Below, piece by piece: positions 6,620 through 52,087 of a DNA stretch of 64,000 bases. Source of the stretch: Bacteroidales bacterium UBA5762 (GTDB taxonomy: Bacteria; Bacteroidota; Bacteroidia; Bacteroidales; TTA-H9); contig DIEY01000072.1 of NCBI GenBank assembly GCA_002418865.1, positions 51,881 through 115,880 of the forward strand. Reading direction: 5' to 3'. The number at the start of each line of letters is the position of its first letter. Position 1 is the stretch's first letter. The position numbers and the translations under genes are program-made. The notes beneath the pieces were generated by a model. That model made no database searches. It saw nothing but the letters and a program-made list of their open reading frames with translations, and had not been told where the DNA came from.

Positions 6620-6741
6620 TGATTTTCTTTTAAGTTATAGCCAATTGATAAAATTCAGGAAAGATTTCGAAAAATTGCTCGAGATTACCAAAACATAGTT
6701 TTGAGCGAAAAAATAGATGCAATAGAAGTAAATAACGAGAT

Positions 6742-7311
6742 TCAGTGTGAAAGTAAAAAATCATCCACTACATGAATAGCTTCATTAATGGCTCGTTCTA
6801 AGTCATCGTTAATAATAATAACATCGAATGAAGGGGCAAAGGTTAGTTCAAAAGCGGCTTTGTTCAGTCGTTGGCTAAGAGATTCTTCAGTTTCGGTGCC
6901 TCTAAGGCGTAGCCGTTGTTCTAAAATCTGTAACGAAGGAGGTTGAATAAAAATGGTTAGAGCTTCAGATTGGAAGATATTTTTTAAATTGAGTGCTCCC
7001 TTCACATCAACGTCAAAAACTGGATTTTTCCCTTGTGTTAAGATTCTATCCAATTCGCTTTTTTGAGTTCCGTAAAAAATTCCTGGATACACTTCTTGCC
7101 ATTCAATAAATTCATCACTCTCGATTTTTCGCCGAAATTCTTCTGAGCTAATAAAGTAATAATCCTTTGCATTGATTTCGCCAGGCCGCTGAGATCGACT
7201 AGTAGTAGAGACCGAAAATGCCAGTTGGGGAAAATGTTTTAAAACTGCTTTTACGATTGTGGTTTTCCCCCCACCCGAAGGAGCCGAAAAGATCAACATT
7301 TTCCTGTTCAT
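6742..7311 (-). CDS. gmk: Guanylate kinase
   Basis: SAPSGGGKTT, SVSTTSR, FYGT, DVDVKGA, LRLRGTE. Confidence 0.97.
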   Translation of the reverse strand: MNRKMLIFSAPSGGGKTTIVKAVLKHFPQLAFSVSTTSRSQRPGEINAKDYYFISSEEFRRKIESDEFIEWQEVYPGIFYGTQKSELDRILTQGKNPVFDVDVKGALNLKNIFQSEALTIFIQPPSLQILEQRLRLRGTETEESLSQRLNKAAFELTFAPSFDVIIINDDLERAINEAIHVVDDFLLSH

Positions 7312-7315
7312 TACT

Positions 7316-8194
7316 TTAGAGAATATTCAAAAGCTGTTCTTTTATTTTTTCGAGTTCGTCTTTCATGGAAACCACAATTTGCTGTATGCCCGCATGATTG
7401 GCTTTCGATCCTAAAGTGTTGATTTCACGGCCAATTTCCTGAGCTATGAAACCAAGTTTTTTCCCCTGAGCGCTTTCTTCTTCCATAGTGCGCAAAAAAT
7501 GATGCAAGTGTTTGGTAAGTCGAATCTTCTCTTCAGTGAAATCAATTTTCTCAAGCCAATAAATCATTTCCTGTTCGAATCGGTTCTTATCGTAAACCGG
7601 TTGATTGGGTAAGTTCATCAACTCTTTTATGATTTTATTTCGCAACGATTCTATGCGTTCCTCCTCAAAAGGCTGAATACTTTGAAGCATACTCTCAATC
7701 TCTTTAATTCTGTTTTCCATATCTTTTGCTAAAATGAGACCTTCTTCTTTTCTGAATGCAATCACTTTACTCAAAGCCTCATTCAAACCCTTCAGCAACA
7801 GATTCCACACTTCTTCAGCTATTTCTGACTCAGGGTTTTTGAAAACCTCAGGCAAACGTGCAATGATTTCTAAATAATCAGTTAGTGAATTTTCAATGCC
7901 AAGTTGCTTTTCTAAGATTTTGAGTTGATCGTAATAATTTACAGCAACAGGAAGATTCAAAGTAGCTACATGCGAGCCGTCAGTATAATCGATATTAATG
8001 ACGGTATCAATCTTCCCTCTCTCAAGAGCAGCAATAATCAAATTTCGAATTTCATATTCTTTTTCACGGTATAGAGTAGGCAGTTTTAAATTTAAATCGG
8101 CTTGGCGGCTATTGAGGGAACGGATTTCTATGGTGATGGTCTTGCCATTGGTCATCAATTGAGCCTTCCCAAAACCAGTCATGGATTGAATCAT
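7316..8194 (-). CDS. yicC: YicC/YloC family endoribonuclease
   Basis: MIQSMTGFG, EIRSLN, ERGKID, GKKLGFIAQEIGREINTLGSKAN; canonical linkage to gmk. Confidence 0.95.
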   Translation of the reverse strand: MIQSMTGFGKAQLMTNGKTITIEIRSLNSRQADLNLKLPTLYREKEYEIRNLIIAALERGKIDTVINIDYTDGSHVATLNLPVAVNYYDQLKILEKQLGIENSLTDYLEIIARLPEVFKNPESEIAEEVWNLLLKGLNEALSKVIAFRKEEGLILAKDMENRIKEIESMLQSIQPFEEERIESLRNKIIKELMNLPNQPVYDKNRFEQEMIYWLEKIDFTEEKIRLTKHLHHFLRTMEEESAQGKKLGFIAQEIGREINTLGSKANHAGIQQIVVSMKDELEKIKEQLLNIL

Positions 8195-8220: not shown

Positions 8221-8662
8221 CTGGATAATTTTCACTAAGCAGGCAGATGGATAAAAATCTTTCCTTGTTTTGCAATGTAACATAGCTTTTTAGGGGGAAA
8301 AATAAGTATGTAATATGTAATAAGTGAGAAAAAGATCGCATAGATTTTCACGCAGATAAGACTGAATAATCATTAGTTTCACTAAGCAAGAAAAAATTTA
8401 AAAAGTTCTCCCAGATGTTAGCCAATATTCTTGTAAATCTTCGAAGATAATAATGGGCGTCTATCAGAGTAAAAGATAAATTGGCATTCATCGTCGAGAG
8501 GGGGAAAATTAAAGAATATATAGATGTGTACAAGTATTTCTCTCCATTCGACAAATGTAGTCTTGGTAAAGATGAGGAAGAAAGATAAAGGAATTTCAAA
8601 AAAGGAATGGCTTTCAGATTAATTGCAAATTTTTTTCATTTTTTTTGGTTTGATAAAATTTT

Positions 8663-8670
8663 TATCTTTG
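8663..8670 (+). promoter_or_regulatory. -7 box TATCTTTG for the two-component operon
   Basis: Consensus match inside the 5' extension of the ORF-track call, implying a later start codon. Confidence 0.55.
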
Positions 8671-8735
8671 AAGAGTTTCTTTTAGATTTGGGTGCCAATG
8701 ATTTCAATAGAAAATTATTTTATAATTTTTCGCAA

Positions 8736-10799
8736 TTGAAGAAGCTTTTCTATAGTGTTGGTATTGTTTTACTCTTGTTTATTCTTAAGCCATTGAAAGC
8801 TGAAGATGTAAGAGGTAACTTTTTATATCGTCAAAATATAGATGATTTAAAACAAAGTCTTTCTCGGGCTAAAAGTCCTGAATCAAAAATCAGAGCTTAT
8901 TTGTCACTTTCGAAGATGTATCAGATTATTTCTGCCAAGGAGGCCTCAGCCTATGCCGATTCGGCTATAATTTTAAGTCATTCAGCTAAATTACCTTCAC
9001 TTAAAGCCGATGCTTTTTTACTTAAGGCAAGAGTATATATGATTGGTTATGTTACCGACTCGGCGAATCTTTTTTTGGATAGCGCCTATAATGAGGCCTT
9101 AAAATATAAGGCTCATTCGTCACTGGGATATATTTTGACCACACAAGCCATTAAAAGTATGTACGAGAATGATAAAGGTATATTTCTCGATGAAATTAAT
9201 CAGGCTGAAGAATATTTTAAACTTGCTAAAGATTACGAAGGGCTAATATATGCCTATTTAGCAAGAGCAGGATTATTTATTAATTTGGACCTATTCGATG
9301 AGGCCCGGCATGATCTGGATTTAGCCAACGAATTAGCCAATAAGCTAAAGGATCCTTCTTTAAAAATATTCTTATTGCTCAAAGAAGCCGATTTGCTTTC
9401 TGCCCTTGGGAATCATCAACAAGCCATTAGTCTCATCTTGTTAAACATGCCTAATATTCGTAAAGATAGTCTCGTTTACTTAGAAAGCACTTGTTTACGT
9501 TCTATTTCTATGCTTTACATTAAATTAGGAGAATACAATAAGGCTCTTGAATGTGCCTATGAAGCTTACGACAAATGTAAGCCACTGAATTTTAATCTTA
9601 TGGCCTCAGACCTGCTTACTTTAATCGCAAATATTTTTCATCGGACAAATAATTTTGATCTTAGCATAAGATTGAATCATCAGGCAAGAGCACTTCGTTA
9701 TTACAATCATTTCCCGTTGTCCTATTTCAACTCTTGTTATAATCTTGCTGCTTTATATGGGGCTTTAAATCAAATTGACAGTTCCCTTTATTGGCTAAAC
9801 CAAGCCGATATAATAGCTGATCGATACAATAATATAGAGACAAAGGCTTTGACCGCCGAACTGTATTATCAAATCTTTGAGCAGGCTGGACTTTACGAAT
9901 CCGCTATTCATTATTTTCAACTCTGGTCAACATTTAAAGCTCAACGAGACCAAATAGTTACTAAAAATGCTTTTCGTGCCTTAAAAGCTACCCTCGATGT
10001 TCAAAGACAAAAAGAGCAATACCAATTGAATGAAAACCGGGTAAGAAACCGATTAATTTTTTCATATTTACTGGCAGGCCTTACTCTTTTGGCCATCATC
10101 ATTGCCTTTCTTCTTGTCCGATCTTATAAAAATAAGATAAGATTGCAGTATAATCAAATGCGTGAAAGGCTCTTGCGTATGCAAATGAACCCCCATTTCA
10201 TTTTTAATGCTCTAATAGCTATTCAAAGCTACATCTATAAAAATGATTCTTCAAAGGCCATCAATCTACTCGACAATTTTTCGGCTCTTATTCGCTTGTT
10301 CTTAACGTCTTCGTCCAAAGACTTTATACCTCTTTCAGAAGAATTGGACATTATACGATATTATCTCGAAATACAACAAATTCGTTTTGATGATAAATTT
10401 GAATATGAGATAGAAGTGTCACCAAAACTTGAACCCGAAAAAATTGCGATCCCACCATTACTTATTCAACCTTTTATCGAAAACAGTATAGAACATGGGT
10501 TTAATGGAATTAAGATAAAAGGTCAGCTAAAGATTATTTACACCAAGCAAGGGAAAAACTTAATGATTTATGTTTTGGATAACGGTATTGGTTATTGTAG
10601 GAGCATACGTCAGAATCCTAATATGAAAAATCATAAATCTATGGCAATTCCAATAACTAAGCAACGACTCGAGATTTTAAATCGTCGATTTCGCATGGAG
10701 CAGATACAGTTTAGAGTAACTGATAATTCGGCCCCAGGTTCGGTTTATCCAGGCACAAGGATAGAATTTTCAATTCCTCTCATTGATATGAAGATATGA
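8736..10799 (+). CDS. TPR-sensor LytS-type histidine kinase (active-site motifs intact); probable TTG start at 8736 rather than 8607
   Basis: Signal peptide MKKLFYSVGIVLLLFILKPLKA, TPR-like helices, one TM, QMNPHFIFN H-box, QPFIENSIEHG N-box, DNGIG G1 box. Confidence 0.88.
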   Translation: MKKLFYSVGIVLLLFILKPLKAEDVRGNFLYRQNIDDLKQSLSRAKSPESKIRAYLSLSKMYQIISAKEASAYADSAIILSHSAKLPSLKADAFLLKARVYMIGYVTDSANLFLDSAYNEALKYKAHSSLGYILTTQAIKSMYENDKGIFLDEINQAEEYFKLAKDYEGLIYAYLARAGLFINLDLFDEARHDLDLANELANKLKDPSLKIFLLLKEADLLSALGNHQQAISLILLNMPNIRKDSLVYLESTCLRSISMLYIKLGEYNKALECAYEAYDKCKPLNFNLMASDLLTLIANIFHRTNNFDLSIRLNHQARALRYYNHFPLSYFNSCYNLAALYGALNQIDSSLYWLNQADIIADRYNNIETKALTAELYYQIFEQAGLYESAIHYFQLWSTFKAQRDQIVTKNAFRALKATLDVQRQKEQYQLNENRVRNRLIFSYLLAGLTLLAIIIAFLLVRSYKNKIRLQYNQMRERLLRMQMNPHFIFNALIAIQSYIYKNDSSKAINLLDNFSALIRLFLTSSSKDFIPLSEELDIIRYYLEIQQIRFDDKFEYEIEVSPKLEPEKIAIPPLLIQPFIENSIEHGFNGIKIKGQLKIIYTKQGKNLMIYVLDNGIGYCRSIRQNPNMKNHKSMAIPITKQRLEILNRRFRMEQIQFRVTDNSAPGSVYPGTRIEFSIPLIDMKI

Positions 10800-12850
10800 A
10801 CAAAAGCAACATTATCTTATTGGTTGTGTTTTTTTGTTTTTTTTCTTCAGAGCTTTTAGCTCAGCATCTCAGCATGAAGACAGATAGCTTGCAAAATGCT
10901 TTGCCAAGATTAAGAGGAGCTGAGCGCTGGCAAGCTATGATGCAAATTATTGATTATTCTGAAGAATTTAGTAAAAATATTTCCCAAGAATATTCGCATC
11001 TATTGTTCGAAGAAGCAAAAATAGCGAGTGATACCTTATACATGATTGAAGGTTTGTACAACTTGGGAATGGTTGAATATATGGATGGGAATTTTAGTCA
11101 GGCGAATCAGTATTTTGACCAATTGATATTTTTAGCAAAAAAAATGAAAGATCCTGAGTTGTTGGCCAAAAATTATATGAGAATATCGAGAATACTTTCG
11201 CATATGGGCATGACAGATCTGGCCTTCAATTATCTTGAACAATCTATCGTTCTATTAAGAAATTCGTCTGATATATACCTAATAATCAGTTTAATGCAAA
11301 ACATTGCCCAGGAATATTACCGCTTGGGACTCTATCAAGAAGCTATAGAAATTTATAGAATGTCGAAAATCTTCTTAATACCTCAACTTCCAGCAGAAGA
11401 CATATCAAGGGCTGACTTTTACAGGAATTATGCCTATGCATTATGTATGAATGATTATCTTACCGATGCATTATATTATGCAGATAAGTCTCGCGAAATA
11501 GTCAAGAAAAATAATTCCAAAGAAGACCTCTTTAATTTAGATAGATTGTATGGCCTCATTTATAGTAAAATGCAAAAAATTGAGCATGTTGTTCAATATC
11601 TTGATCCGGTTTCTGTACAAACCGAAAAATATAGTTACTTGTTGAAGAGCTCTTATATCCATAATGAACTCGCTCACTACTTGCAGCAAGCAGGCGAATA
11701 TTCCCATGCCTTAGAGCATCAATTGAAATCGTTGCGCTTGCGGCAAAAAGTTGGTTTCAATTCGGTAATATGCATTGCCTATATCAATTATGGCGATGCC
11801 TTGATGAAAGCTAACAAGATGGATTCTGCTTTTTTGTATCTCTCGATGGGCAAAGATATGGCTTCATCAATGGATTTTAAATCAGAATTAAAAAGAGCTT
11901 ATGAAAAATTGGGAAGTTACTATGTGCAAACTCAGCAGTTCGGGAAGGCTTTATACTTTATTAAAGAGGCTAGAGAATTTGAAAATATAGAAGCCAACAT
12001 TCAATCGGAACAACAACGTAAACTTCTGGCCTTAAATACAGAAGTTCAATCCTATAACGAAAAAAATCTCAGTCTAAAAGACATAGAATCGAAACAAAAC
12101 ATCTTCTTTGTTTTGATTGGGGGGATTATTTTGTTATTGATTATTACACTTTGGCTGTATTTTTTTAATCATAGACGCGAAGACTTTCTAAAAAGTACTG
12201 AAATAAAACAGAAGATATTGGCTTTACAACTTAACCCAGCTTTTATTTTCAATATGTTAGTTGGAATTCGTGGAATTATCGAGCATGGAAGAACTGAGGA
12301 AGCCTCGCAATATTTAACGGGTTTCGCCAAACTGATTAGAGTAATTTTGGTAAGCCCGCAATATAATTATCAATTTATTGATAAAGAGATAGATGTGTTG
12401 AACAATTATCTCGAACTACAAAAAATACGTTTTGCCGACCTCTTAACGTATGACATTCAGGTTGATACTTCTTTCGACTCGTCACGTATAGGAATGCCAT
12501 CGTTTTTATGCCATCCCCTACTCGAAAACTTTTTCAACTCTATTGCTTCCAAAAACGATAAACCCCTTCACGTATCTGTCAATTTTCAACAAGGGAATGG
12601 TAATATGTTGGCTTCTATAAAAATATCACTTGACAAAGAGATTTATGACAAAAATCCGGGCTCTCCATGGCTCGAAGAGCTTAAACCTGTTCTTGAGCTC
12701 ATCAAGGAAAAAATAATCATTATCCAAAAGTCGAAGAAGACTTCTAAAACGATATATAAGACAGAAGAAATTGTAGAGAATGGAAATTATAACCTGATAA
12801 TGCACATTTATGCTCCTGTTTCTACTGAAATGAAATCAGAAGCATCTTAA
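10796..12850 (+). CDS. TPR-sensor LytS-like kinase paralogue with degenerate catalytic motifs (probable pseudokinase)
   Basis: Same architecture and size as the upstream kinase, but H-box reads QLNPAFIFN, N-box reads ENFFNS, and there is no DxGxG; ATGA overlap with the upstream gene. Confidence 0.8.
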   Translation: MNKSNIILLVVFFCFFSSELLAQHLSMKTDSLQNALPRLRGAERWQAMMQIIDYSEEFSKNISQEYSHLLFEEAKIASDTLYMIEGLYNLGMVEYMDGNFSQANQYFDQLIFLAKKMKDPELLAKNYMRISRILSHMGMTDLAFNYLEQSIVLLRNSSDIYLIISLMQNIAQEYYRLGLYQEAIEIYRMSKIFLIPQLPAEDISRADFYRNYAYALCMNDYLTDALYYADKSREIVKKNNSKEDLFNLDRLYGLIYSKMQKIEHVVQYLDPVSVQTEKYSYLLKSSYIHNELAHYLQQAGEYSHALEHQLKSLRLRQKVGFNSVICIAYINYGDALMKANKMDSAFLYLSMGKDMASSMDFKSELKRAYEKLGSYYVQTQQFGKALYFIKEAREFENIEANIQSEQQRKLLALNTEVQSYNEKNLSLKDIESKQNIFFVLIGGIILLLIITLWLYFFNHRREDFLKSTEIKQKILALQLNPAFIFNMLVGIRGIIEHGRTEEASQYLTGFAKLIRVILVSPQYNYQFIDKEIDVLNNYLELQKIRFADLLTYDIQVDTSFDSSRIGMPSFLCHPLLENFFNSIASKNDKPLHVSVNFQQGNGNMLASIKISLDKEIYDKNPGSPWLEELKPVLELIKEKIIIIQKSKKTSKTIYKTEEIVENGNYNLIMHIYAPVSTEMKSEAS

Positions 12851-13018
12851 GACGAATTTTGAGGTTATGGCGATTATATGACGATTTCCTTATTAAGGAA
12901 GCCGAATTCGTATTTCTGAATTTATGGGTTAAGGTTATTCGAATTTTCAGAGAAATAATTTGTTATTGTTAGAATATATTTCTAATTTTATCCATTCATT
13001 TAAAACCACTTAAGAGCC

Positions 13019-13777
13019 ATGCGAATCATCGTTGTGGATGATGAAAAATTAGCCAGAGATGCGATAATAAAGATTGGTAATCAGAGAATTGCGGATTTCG
13101 AAGTAGTAGCTCAGGCAGGCAGTATACATGAAGCTCAGCAAGCTATTTTACAACATCAACCCGATCTGCTTCTGCTCGATATTCAGCTTCTCGATGGTAG
13201 TGGTTTCGATTTATTAGCCTTATTTCCCTCGCCTCTAAAATTTAAAGTTATCTTTATCACGGCTTACGAAGAATATGCCATCAAGGCTTTTAAGGCGAGT
13301 GCCCTGGATTATTTATTGAAACCTATTGATGCCGATGAATTTGTAAAAAGCATCAATAAAGTAAAATATCAGCTCAACCTCGAAACTTTCAACAAAAGCT
13401 TTCAAACTTTCATTCATCTATACCATGCCAATATTGGTGAACAAAATCAGCCTATAATTATTCATTCCCATTCATCCCTTATCCGCCTTCTCCCAAGTGA
13501 GATTTCCCGAATAGAAGAAGAGGGCAATTATGCCAATATTTTTTTATTATCGGGTGAAGTTGTAAAAGTAACACGAACTCTTAACAGTTTAGAGGAAGAA
13601 TTAAAATCGAGGGGTTTTTTACGGACCCATAAATCGCATCTTGTGAATATTCAATATATTAAAACTTTCCATTCCAAAGAATTAAATATTGTGATGGTTG
13701 ATGGTATAAAAGTTCCTGTTTCGTTTCGAAAGCGTTCTCAGGTTTCTATGTCCATTACCCAATGGTGTAAGATGTAA
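13019..13777 (+). CDS. LytTR family response regulator
   Basis: Receiver domain (VVDDE, LLLDIQ, FITAY, LKP) plus LytTR domain (FLRTHKSHLVNI, VPVS). Confidence 0.95.
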   Translation: MRIIVVDDEKLARDAIIKIGNQRIADFEVVAQAGSIHEAQQAILQHQPDLLLLDIQLLDGSGFDLLALFPSPLKFKVIFITAYEEYAIKAFKASALDYLLKPIDADEFVKSINKVKYQLNLETFNKSFQTFIHLYHANIGEQNQPIIIHSHSSLIRLLPSEISRIEEEGNYANIFLLSGEVVKVTRTLNSLEEELKSRGFLRTHKSHLVNIQYIKTFHSKELNIVMVDGIKVPVSFRKRSQVSMSITQWCKM

Positions 13778-13780
13778 CTT

Positions 13781-14860
13781 ATGGAAGATTATTCGGCTGT
13801 AGCAAAATATTCTGTATTCGATGATACATTGCGATTCTACAATGCTTTGCTTTCTGATATTGAAAATGCCACGAGGTATATTTACATTGAGATTTATCGG
13901 TTTACTTATCATAGTTTGGGGAAAAAGTTCAGAGATACCTTATTAAAGAAAGTCCATCAGGGTGTTAAGGTGAGAATGCTTTTAGACTCATGGGGAACTT
14001 CACCAAATCAAGAATTTTTTTCACCCCTAACAAGGGCTGGTGCTGAGGTTAGATTTTTCGAGAAAATTCGTTTCAATTTAGATTATTTTACACGCAGTCA
14101 CAGGCGTAATCATCGTAAAATTATTGTCGTAGACGATCAAATTCTTTATCTTGGTTCCGCTAACATCACCGATTATAACGTGGTTTGGCGCGAACTCATC
14201 GTGAGAATGGAAGGGGAACTTGCAAGCGTTTTTAAGGACATCTTCAATTCCATGTTTGATATTTATAATCGTTATTTAATTTACTCACCCGAGCTTACTG
14301 CGCCCATCACATATAAAGGATTCGACATCATTCGCGATGTACCTTCTCAGCGTCATCAAAATATCAAAAAACATTTCATAAAATTGATTCATTCGGCTCA
14401 TAAAAGCATTTTCATCGAAACACCTTATTTCTTGCCCTCTTTCCTTTTGCGTTCCGCCCTTATTAAAGCCGCTAAAAAGGGCGTAAAGGTTTTTGTTTTA
14501 CTACCAAAACATTCCGATGTTCGGCTTGTTGACTTGCTTCGGAACAAGTATCTTGGCCCTTTAACCGAAAAAGGAATTAAATTTTTTATGTATATCCCTC
14601 AAAATCTTCATTCAAAACTTTTATTGGTCGATGATAATTCCTTTGCCTTTGGTTCACCTAATTTTGATTACCGTAGCTTTAGCTTTCAGCACGAAATTGT
14701 TTTGAGCGGCCATGACCCACGATTGATAAAACTTTTGAAGGAACATGTAAATGAAACCCTTCAGGATTCTGAACCTTTCGATTATTTACGCTGGAAAAGA
14801 CGTCCTTATATAGAAAAAATTTTTGAATGGCTCATCGTTCCATTCAGGCAGCTTCTTTAA
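13781..14860 (+). CDS. Phospholipase D superfamily protein, cardiolipin synthase-like, lacking N-terminal TM helices
   Basis: Two HKD motifs (NHRKIIVVD...GSANI; LHSKLLLVD...GSPNF) and ETPYF. Confidence 0.88.
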   Translation: MEDYSAVAKYSVFDDTLRFYNALLSDIENATRYIYIEIYRFTYHSLGKKFRDTLLKKVHQGVKVRMLLDSWGTSPNQEFFSPLTRAGAEVRFFEKIRFNLDYFTRSHRRNHRKIIVVDDQILYLGSANITDYNVVWRELIVRMEGELASVFKDIFNSMFDIYNRYLIYSPELTAPITYKGFDIIRDVPSQRHQNIKKHFIKLIHSAHKSIFIETPYFLPSFLLRSALIKAAKKGVKVFVLLPKHSDVRLVDLLRNKYLGPLTEKGIKFFMYIPQNLHSKLLLVDDNSFAFGSPNFDYRSFSFQHEIVLSGHDPRLIKLLKEHVNETLQDSEPFDYLRWKRRPYIEKIFEWLIVPFRQLL

Positions 14861-51358: not shown

Positions 51359-52087
51359 ATCATTCATACACGGGCAATTCTGCTGCATTATATTCATTAT
51401 AGCGATCACAGCATCATTGCAAAGTTATATACTCGAGAGAGTGGCTTAAAGTCGTTCATGGTCAAAGGTATGAGCAGAAAGAATTCTATATTGAAACCTT
51501 CTCAGCTTCAGCCATTGACCCTTCTCGAAATCATATATGAAGAAAAACCACATCGCCAACTTTACTTCTTAAAAGAAGCAAGAAATTATTTTCTGAGCTA
51601 TAAAGCCCAAAATAATGTGATTATATCAGGAATTATCCTTTTTATAACCGAAGTGCTCAATCATAGCATAAAGGAAGAAGAAGCCAATCCCCAGCTTTTC
51701 GATTTTATAGAAAAAATCATCATTAAGCTCGAAACAATAGAAGAGAATATAGCTTTTTTACCTATCTGGTTTCTTATCAGATTGTCGAGTTTTTTAGGGA
51801 TTACCCCTTTAAATAATTACACTTCGGAAACTATTACTTTCAACATGGAGGAAGGAAAGTTCCAGGAAAGTTTCCCAGAACGAAATGTTTATATTACTGG
51901 TGAGAATGTCGAAATTCTCTCACTTCTCATCAAAGCATTTAGCGCCTCCGACTATTTTGTACCTAACATTCAAATTAGTGACAAATCTGTCATAATAGAT
52001 ATTCTACTTCAATATTATCATCAACATTTACCTGGTTTTTCAGAGATTCATACTCATAAAATCTTGAAAGAAATACTATATTCTTGA
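51359..52087 (+). CDS. recO: DNA repair protein RecO; N-terminus extends 33 codons above the first ATG (51458)
   Basis: xIHTRAILLH...YSDHSIIAKLYTRESG..SFMVKG OB-fold start, QPLTLLEI, FLIRLSSFLGITP, FNMEEGKF; -7 box at 51316-51323. Confidence 0.88.
   Translation: MIHTRAILLHYIHYSDHSIIAKLYTRESGLKSFMVKGMSRKNSILKPSQLQPLTLLEIIYEEKPHRQLYFLKEARNYFLSYKAQNNVIISGIILFITEVLNHSIKEEEANPQLFDFIEKIIIKLETIEENIAFLPIWFLIRLSSFLGITPLNNYTSETITFNMEEGKFQESFPERNVYITGENVEILSLLIKAFSASDYFVPNIQISDKSVIIDILLQYYHQHLPGFSEIHTHKILKEILYS

Follow-up and report, generated by a model that had tools for sequence, protein, structure and literature searches.

A LytS-type sensor kinase paralogue without phosphoacceptor histidine or recognisable ATP site, conserved beside a His-bearing kinase in a family of Bacteroidales

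What role is left to a sensor kinase whose phosphoacceptor histidine is gone, when its gene is kept beside that of an intact paralogue? The question is raised by a locus in the draft genome of Bacteroidales bacterium UBA5762 (GenBank GCA_002418865.1; 2.8 Mb in 102 contigs), within a stretch of 64,000 nucleotides, referred to here as the window, which spans positions 51,881 to 115,880 of the forward strand of contig DIEY01000072.1. Four tightly packed genes on the plus strand, between 8.6 and 14.9 kb of the window, encode two histidine kinase-like proteins (HK1 and HK2), a response regulator (RR) and a phospholipase D-type (PLD) protein, and near-identical proteins are filed in public records under 'Bacteroidetes bacterium 38_7' and 'Lentimicrobium sp.'. 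The first-pass annotation of the window had described the first two products as two proteins of like size (687 and 684 residues), each with a signal peptide, tetratricopeptide repeats (TPR), a transmembrane (TM) helix and a kinase region, which are coupled by an ATGA overlap, and had proposed that the second is catalytically dead and would heterodimerise with the first as a co-receptor, contributing another TPR input or adjusting the kinase/phosphatase balance; the layout and the overlap were confirmed, with the reservation that the start of the 687-residue form of HK1 is uncertain. Histidine kinases are usually regarded as symmetric homodimers, and to our knowledge the documented pseudo-histidine kinases are few (DivL, RocA and FasC), each described from genetics in a single organism. 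On balance we lean, by a little, towards the reading that HK2 is an old, selectively maintained pseudo-histidine kinase, which originated when the gene of a TPR-sensor LytS-type (PF06580) kinase was duplicated and which serves as a non-catalytic sensor subunit acting with HK1.

Catalytic motifs and fold of HK1 and HK2

HK1 and HK2 have a common layout in which an N-terminal signal sequence is followed by approximately 400 residues of TPR, one TM helix, basic residues and a kinase-type core, and the TPR part must therefore be periplasmic. Both proteins matched the Pfam His_kinase family PF06580 above its cut-off of 25.2 bits, HK1 with 78.6 bits (E 4e-22) and HK2 with 59.4 bits (E 4e-16), and TPR families were also matched by each; HK2, which exceeds the gathering score, is therefore a homologue of the LytS/YehU-type family. 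The two were 34% identical across 114 residues of the dimerization and histidine phosphotransfer (DHp) region (E 2e-21), with faint similarity elsewhere, and on this similarity they are paralogues. No NCBIfam model matched HK1, and the same collection gave for HK2 a weak, TPR-level match to Porphyromonas FimS alone.

The motifs first read in HK1, NPHF, ENSIEHG (aa 582-588) and DNGIG (aa 615-619), were all exact. Its phosphoacceptor His, N-box Glu-Asn and G1-box DxGxG are those of a PF06580 kinase and align with their counterparts in GanS, the sole solved relative found by sequence (E 1e-19). HK1 had no Pfam match to HATPase_c (PF02518) at E<0.1 and no canonical G2 box; HKSMA stands in place of the G2 motif GxGL, a trait common to many His-bearing TPR relatives. 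With respect to this G2 site (aa 630-640; window approximately 10623-10655), the Bacteroidota TPR-PF06580 kinases, including P0003-P0006, read H(K/Q)S(M/L)A, and this may be a variant form of the ATP lid, present throughout a large and uncharacterised subfamily.

The reading of HK2 was equally exact: the H box is NPAF, the N box is ENFFNS (aa 577-582), and there is no DxGxG anywhere in the protein. When assessed across its clade, HK2 lacks the phosphoacceptor His, the N-box Asn and the G1 box of a PF06580 kinase, although HK2 of the window species keeps the N-box Glu-Asn (E577 and N578), the Asn being gone only in other genera. GanS aligned to the same helices of HK2 with the His missing (E 2.5e-5). 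Judged by its motifs, HK2 is without a recognisable ATP site and, at the acceptor position, without a residue able to carry phosphate, so that it should be able neither to donate nor to accept phosphate. HK2 and its orthologues are labelled in public records as 'histidine kinase', 'LytS', 'YehU', TPR repeat protein or hypothetical protein; as HK2 appears to be catalytically dead, the kinase names overstate its catalytic function.

A model of the HK2 C-terminus was built with AlphaFold2. While prediction from the single sequence was poor (pLDDT 58.9), a monomer of residues 431-684 rebuilt with a 41-row alignment gave pLDDT 88.4 and pTM 0.81, and had the TM helix followed by a helical hairpin and an alpha/beta sandwich. 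Foldseek comparison of this model with the PDB returned the GanS kinase domain as the best match (E 2.7e-7), followed by AgrC, HK853, YycG and SrrB, and DivL, RetS and the RetS-GacS DHp complex were also among the matches. HK2 is thus predicted to retain the histidine kinase fold, with a TM-DHp core and a domain corresponding to the catalytic and ATP-binding (CA) domain. A separate feature of the HK2 clade is a nearly invariant, clade-specific His, H573, in CHPLLE (aa 572-577 within PSFLCHPLLEN; window 12509-12526), which stands where the HK1 motif PPLLxQPFxEN has a conserved Gln. This His, PPF and the Glu that comes next make up the sole conserved patch of the degenerate CA-like domain.

The first-pass annotation had also held that the Ala codon of HK2 was too far from a His codon to be a read error. 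GCT is two base changes away from either CAT or CAC. Contigs from four independent metagenomes (two from wastewater, one from groundwater and one from an oil field) covered HK2 at approximately 99% identity without indels, no variant was listed for 12239-12241 or for the HK1 His codon (10194-10196), and RNA-derived contigs over 11995-12658 had no variant at the Ala codon. A read or assembly error at this codon was ruled out, as the four metagenomes and the RNA-derived contigs share it. Contigs from rRNA-depleted metatranscriptomes and a cDNA library covered HK1, HK2, RR and PLD; one RNA-derived contig crossed the HK1/HK2 junction (10470-10845) and one ran from RR into PLD (13186-14597), and none among them bridged HK2 into the RR gene.

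Conservation, selection and recurrence

Sixty relatives were searched and the corresponding loci retrieved. The arrangement in which a divergent Gmk-YicC pair is followed by HK1-HK2-RR-PLD and, further on, NlpC was kept in five of the family's six genera, and the same arrangement was present on one metagenomic contig that carries P0014 and represents a further lineage; the survey for conserved kinase-pseudokinase tandems suggested by the first-pass annotation thus found them in five genera and one metagenomic lineage. None of the 11 HK2 orthologues had the His, the residues at this site being A, T, S, N, I, I, L, R, Q, K and K, and the G1 box was missing from all 11. To judge from this series, the residue at the His site is simply unconstrained. 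The N-box Asn was limited to genus g1, that of the window, with Q, A, S, V or I elsewhere. All eight HK1 orthologues retained NPHF, EN..EHG and DNGxG. The Asn four residues after the lost His of HK2 (His+4), which we take to be an important phosphatase residue in LytS although a literature search did not confirm this, was present in the g1, g4 and P0014 lineages and lost in g3, g5 and g6.

The stop of HK1 and the start of HK2 overlapped by 4 or 8 nt in seven of eight genomes, with a 4-nt gap in the eighth, and by 4 nt in the P0014 locus. The distance from HK2 to the RR gene was 24-168 nt across loci, HK2 being directly upstream of RR in every lineage. Within the genomes of the window (G000), of its sister species (G001) and of G004, the pair were the only PF06580 genes, so that HK1 is the only same-family kinase partner available. 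The HK2 of the sister species (L021:18-1979; cluster members P0166 and P0167) has 651 residues, ends in KSKKNHY, and is without the last beta-hairpin of the CA-like domain; this form was present on more than 100 contigs. A genome from another family of the same order (G053) had the same neighbourhood with a single His-bearing kinase that retains the motifs of the HK1 orthologues, and this single-kinase state is probably ancestral.

In a tree of the DHp-CA region, HK2 sequences formed one clade (ultrafast bootstrap (UFboot)/SH-aLRT support 100/99) and HK1 sequences another (99/87), with g1 and g4 as sisters in both. This topology is consistent with a single loss that preceded the separation of the genera, after which the two proteins diverged in parallel. 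HK2 was on a long branch at the midpoint root, and its kinase-core branches were approximately 2.7 times those of HK1 (G000-G004 path, 3.49 versus 1.28). We infer a duplication from HK1 in the family ancestor on the basis of synteny and the single-kinase locus of G053, not of the tree.

Selection was examined between G000 and G001, where dS was near saturation and ratios of proportions are therefore given. The pN/pS of HK2 was 0.28 and that of HK1 0.19; within HK2 the DHp had the lowest value of the three regions compared (0.18), and the CA-like domain had 0.34. Population single-nucleotide polymorphisms listed in HK2 from the four metagenomes comprised 21 synonymous and 11 non-synonymous changes, of which nine and two, respectively, fell in residues 454-684 (TM, DHp and CA-like). 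No internal stop was found in any HK2 orthologue, and the frame was intact in 11 lineages despite 22-38% identity in the C-terminal region. Mean between-genus identities for HK1 and HK2 were 0.17 and 0.18 in the TPR part, 0.44 and 0.36 in the DHp, and 0.38 and 0.19 in the CA or CA-like domain. Of 21 invariant or near-invariant HK2 positions, 15 were in the DHp, five in PPFxxHxxxE at the start of the CA-like domain, and one in a later helix. HK2 is under purifying selection; its sensor domain and DHp are about as constrained as those of the real kinase, and the former catalytic domain alone is relaxed. The claim of a catalytically dead but maintained second protein was strongly supported by the absence of the His and G1 box from every orthologue, by purifying selection, by the fold and by the RNA-derived contigs. 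The outcome named beforehand as speaking against it, recent decay with orthologues that keep the His and G boxes, was not seen, and recent decay was ruled out by orthologues, selection and phylogeny.

To look beyond the family, an exhaustive HMMER search was made with the HK2 C-terminus as query and returned 44,017 related representatives at E<=1e-3. Among the best 150, His-less cores were found in the HK2 orthologues P0002, P0014 and P0015 and in the first modules of P0056 and P0067, and in no others. P0056 (1182 aa) and P0067 (1193 aa), both from Logan assemblies, have TPR, a TM helix, a His-less module (NPVF or NPSF), two hydrophobic segments and then a complete module with NPHF, EN..EHG and DNGIG. 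They look like fused pseudokinase-kinase pairs and would give a Rosetta-stone-type hint of physical association; each was found on one contig only, and a gene-calling or assembly artefact is possible. Their modules formed a clade of their own apart from HK2. A further case was found in Saprospiraceae MAG-108, a metagenome-assembled genome (MAG), with three tandem TPR-less PF06580 kinase genes (JAHDBJ010000002.1, L064:3251-8093). The first two have NPHF, EN..KHA and DNG, and the third (6684-8093), which has NADF, EYYFKEM and no G1 box, was nested within its local tandem paralogues (support 100/99). Two uncultured Bacteroidales MAGs (L045 and L053) carry tandem TPR-PF06580 pairs in which both copies have His, N and G1 boxes; these could be a stage preceding pseudokinase formation, or two-input pairs of live kinases. 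His loss beside a live paralogue appears to have occurred at least three times in the TPR-PF06580 group, once within a single polypeptide.

Partner and mode of action of HK2

The sensor and DHp of HK2 are constrained, and DHp domains are able either to dimerise with one another or to serve as the docking site of a receiver; on these grounds HK2 most likely transmits a TPR-sensed cue to the phosphotransfer between HK1 and RR. In the mechanism we propose, HK1 and HK2 would be co-produced from their overlapping reading frames, and the periplasmic TPR part of HK2 would read a second cue and relay it through the membrane to its DHp. The HK2 DHp would pair with or pack against that of HK1 in a hetero-dimer or hetero-oligomer, and this complex would set how far HK1 adds phosphate to, or removes it from, the single LytTR regulator, which would in turn control at least the co-transcribed PLD gene. 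Hetero-association of HK2 with HK1, to which we would give about an even chance, is favoured because the frame overlap is with HK1 and not with the RR gene, because candidate kinase-pseudokinase fusions occur, and because FasB-FasC and RocA-CovS offer precedents. We infer the identity of the partner (HK1 rather than RR), the regulon and the sign of the effect. That the output concerns the envelope or phospholipids is a guess from the synteny of the downstream PLD gene.

Several observations weigh against a sensor subunit that acts with HK1. The first helix of the HK2 DHp is strongly divergent after the lost His (FIFTS in g3, FIYLS in g5 and FSYRW in g6), a pattern that a strictly conserved DHp interface would not predict. 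Genus g2 has lost the entire HK1-HK2-RR module from its place beside the PLD gene. The candidate fusions and the Saprospiraceae tandem belong to separate lineages and are not HK2 orthologues. The catalytic competence of HK1 is presumed from its motifs, which include neither a canonical G2 box nor an HATPase_c match, and the RNA evidence consists of assembled metatranscriptome contigs, for which an origin from DNA is possible, and is supportive, not conclusive. The activity of a heterodimer also hinges on the mode of HK1 autophosphorylation, cis or trans: if in trans, a 1:1 heterodimer would be inactive, and HK2 would be inhibitory and not co-activating.

The main rival, which we consider unlikely but the most serious of the alternatives, is that HK2 acts on RR and not on HK1, with the DHp of an HK2 homodimer docking the LytTR regulator as a signal-controlled sink or scaffold, as a DivL-like sensor of phosphorylated regulator, or as a His-independent phosphatase. 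The DHp, which is the conserved portion of HK2, is the site where regulators dock, the gene is directly upstream of RR in every lineage, and the presumed phosphatase Asn at His+4 is kept in g1, g4 and P0014; DivL, which the HK2 model matches, binds DivK~P via its kinase core (PMC4211667). The first-helix residues after the His, the usual determinants of regulator specificity, are however the most variable part of the HK2 DHp, the tight overlap is with HK1 while 24-168 nt separate HK2 from RR, and the independent fusions join a pseudokinase to a kinase and not to a regulator. The His+4 Asn is moreover lost in g3, g5 and g6, which weakens a dedicated phosphatase role to the extent that this residue has the importance presumed for it. 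Less probable still is a membrane-anchored periplasmic TPR scaffold, for instance for envelope proteins or lipids, in which the cytoplasmic part would be a vestige for folding, dimerization or insertion with no signalling through HK1 or RR. TPR constraint equal to that of HK1, relaxation of the CA-like domain with loss of its last hairpin in the sister species, and varied residues at the His site that suggest no new chemistry there would all agree with such a scaffold, but not the DHp as the most conserved region of HK2 (15 of 21 positions; pN/pS 0.18), nor the position of HK2 between HK1 and RR with coupled frames in every lineage that has it, nor the situation in g2, where kinase and regulator are gone and whole-genome searches gave no clear HK2 orthologue, the best matches being weak (approximately E 1e-18 to 1e-24).

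That HK2 is a functionless, decaying duplicate, a pseudogene in waiting, is very improbable. The lost motifs, the long kinase-core branches, the relaxed CA-like domain and its C-terminal shortening in G001 would be expected of one; a frame intact in 11 lineages at such low C-terminal identity, pN/pS well below 1 between species and within the population, a confident fold model and RNA-derived contigs over HK2 would not. We attach equally little credence to the view that HK2 is still a kinase or phosphotransfer protein by way of another residue or an unconventional nucleotide site. While the nearly invariant H573, at the position of the conserved Gln of HK1, would be the candidate residue, it is on the first helix of the CA-like domain and not in the DHp; G1 is absent from all orthologues and the N-box Asn from those outside g1, and in the sister species the sheet that would make up the pocket is short of two strands.

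Among the closest parallels to HK2 as a sensor subunit of HK1 is the three-component system of group A Streptococcus, in which a heterodimer of FasB and FasC works with FasA (Mol Microbiol 2025, PMC12675982). As in HK1-HK2-RR, the genes of two sensor-kinase-like membrane proteins share an operon with that of a single response regulator; one of the pair is a proposed pseudokinase, and two-hybrid assays show heterodimers and no homodimers (PMC12675982). With two kinase-like genes and one regulator gene in one unit, as indicated by the conserved gene order and the junction contig, the present locus has the same composition. FasC differs in keeping its phosphoacceptor His (H246 is needed), only its kinase domain being dispensable, whereas HK2 is without both His and ATP-binding motifs; HK1 and HK2 are also PF06580 proteins with periplasmic TPR from another phylum, known here from sequence alone. 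The pseudokinase RocA, which binds CovS (PMC7028121), is like HK2 a membrane sensor-kinase homologue whose CA domain is without catalytic residues, and its His is dispensable; it binds a real kinase and shifts the kinase/phosphatase output of that kinase (PMC7028121). Unlike HK2, RocA is encoded away from covRS, has six TM helices, no large periplasmic sensor domain and a His still present, and is not a recent paralogue of its partner, whereas HK2 lies in tandem with its paralogue, is translationally coupled to it and has a full TPR ectodomain. DivL of Caulobacter resembles HK2 in its conserved kinase fold, clade-wide loss of the His and repurposing for signalling (PMC4211667). In DivL the N, G1, F and G2 boxes are retained and a conserved Tyr takes the place of the His, whereas HK2 has no G1 box and an unconstrained His site; DivL is also a cytoplasmic PAS-domain protein that binds a regulator in its phosphorylated form and governs a non-adjacent hybrid kinase. 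The RetS-GacS pair of Pseudomonas aeruginosa, in the account cited by PMC12675982, is a case in which a kinase-like protein controls another kinase by hetero-association at the level of the DHp; RetS differs in retaining kinase motifs, forming homodimers as well, not being next to gacS and being a HisKA hybrid kinase. HK1 and RR have the features of LytS/LytR, of BtsS/BtsR (YehU/YehT) and of the GanS core (PDB 6swj, 6swk), namely H (NPHF), N and G1 boxes together with a LytTR regulator. They differ from canonical LytS/LytR in the single-pass architecture with periplasmic TPR of HK1 and HK2 in place of 5TM-LytS plus GAF, in HKSMA for the G2 box and in the extra dead paralogue.

Pseudo-histidine kinases and three-component systems are already established by DivL, RocA, FasBCA and RetS-GacS. 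A literature search found no paper on TPR-PF06580 kinases or pseudokinases in Bacteroidota, nor on the HK1-HK2 system. What appears to be new is a LytS-type PF06580 case in Bacteroidota in which the dead partner is left with neither acceptor His nor nucleotide site, retains a large periplasmic sensor of its own and is a translationally coupled tandem paralogue conserved family-wide, with the ancestral single-kinase state and independent recurrences visible. The pair offers a clean natural experiment in which a duplicated sensor kinase would have become a regulatory subunit. The case was recognised purely from sequence, and tandem PF06580 genes of which one is without the His provide a genomic signature for further cases. 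The hosts are uncultured anaerobes of wastewater, digesters and oil fields, and the practical impact is modest. As comparative genomics we regard the finding as solid, and it would probably be moderately surprising to a specialist in two-component systems.

A bolder extension, possible but in our view rather doubtful, is that HK1 and HK2 are the live and the dead protomer of an obligate asymmetric receptor and carry different periplasmic TPR sensors, as a bacterial equivalent of receptor kinase/pseudokinase pairs like HER2/HER3, and that this design has evolved repeatedly among Bacteroidota TPR-LytS kinases (the Lentimicrobium-like family, the Saprospiraceae tandem and the fusions). If so, kinase-pseudokinase heterodimers would be a general, genome-predictable way to integrate two signals in two-component signalling.

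Layout of the locus and neighbouring genes

Table 1. Features of the HK1-HK2-RR-PLD locus (window positions)
Feature	Position	Strand	Remarks
HK1, presumed active kinase: signal peptide, ~400 aa periplasmic TPR, one TM helix, PF06580 DHp and CA	8736..10799	+	Motifs kept in all orthologues
HK1 phosphoacceptor His codon CAT in NPHF	10194..10196	+	Aligns with His of GanS H box
HK1 N box ENSIEHG (10479-10499) to G1 box DNGIG (10578-10592)	10479..10592	+	
HK2, putative pseudo-histidine kinase, same architecture as HK1, 684 aa	10796..12850	+	
HK2 parts: signal peptide aa 1-22; TPR ~aa 25-425; TM aa 438-459; DHp ~aa 465-560; CA-like aa 561-684			
ATGA stop/start overlap of HK1 and HK2 (translational coupling)	10796..10799	+	
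HK2 GCT (Ala482) where the phosphoacceptor His would be	12239..12241	+	Same in four metagenomes and RNA-derived contigs
HK2 DHp region, best conserved portion of the HK2 clade	12188..12475	+	15/21 invariant or near-invariant positions
HK2 CA-like alpha/beta domain without ATP-binding motifs	12476..12847	+	Mean between-genus identity 0.19
HK2-RR spacer, 168 nt, imperfect direct repeats	12851..13018	+	
Response regulator, receiver (REC) and LytTR (BtsR/LytR-like), the operon's only output partner	13019..13777	+	
Soluble two-HKD PLD protein (cardiolipin-synthase/ClsB-like)	13781..14860	+	3 nt past RR gene

The start codon of HK1 is uncertain. Its open reading frame extends from 8607 to 10799, and the 687-aa form begins at TTG 8736, directly before the signal-like MKKLFYSVGIVLLLFILKPLKA; the orthologue of the sister species has GTG at the position equivalent to this TTG. 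Initiation at ATG 8607, which would give a protein of 730 aa, is the possible alternative.

The regulator matched PF00072 (68.6 bits) and PF04397 (64.8 bits) and is thus composed of REC and LytTR domains; its nearest NCBIfam models were BtsR and LytR, both under their equivalog cut-offs. By profile comparison the PLD protein was nearest to cardiolipin synthase/ClsB models. This ClsB-like gene follows the regulator in all lineages that have the system and follows the single-kinase version in G053, and in genus g2 (L098, L099 and L100) it stands alone with no adjacent kinase or regulator genes.

The spacer between HK2 and RR contains the imperfect direct repeats CGAATTTTGAG (12853) and CGAATTTTCAG (12940), 87 nt apart, and a second repeat pair, AAGACGAATT and AAGCCGAATT, 50 nt apart. 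It may hold a putative internal promoter or a site for the regulator. A sigma-70 promoter and terminator scan gave hits no more numerous than in shuffled sequence, the consensus used being ill-suited to Bacteroidota promoters. At 168 nt this spacer exceeds that of every other orthologous locus (24-105 nt); one metagenome carried a 7-nt insertion at 12872, and the assembly of the sister genome breaks there.

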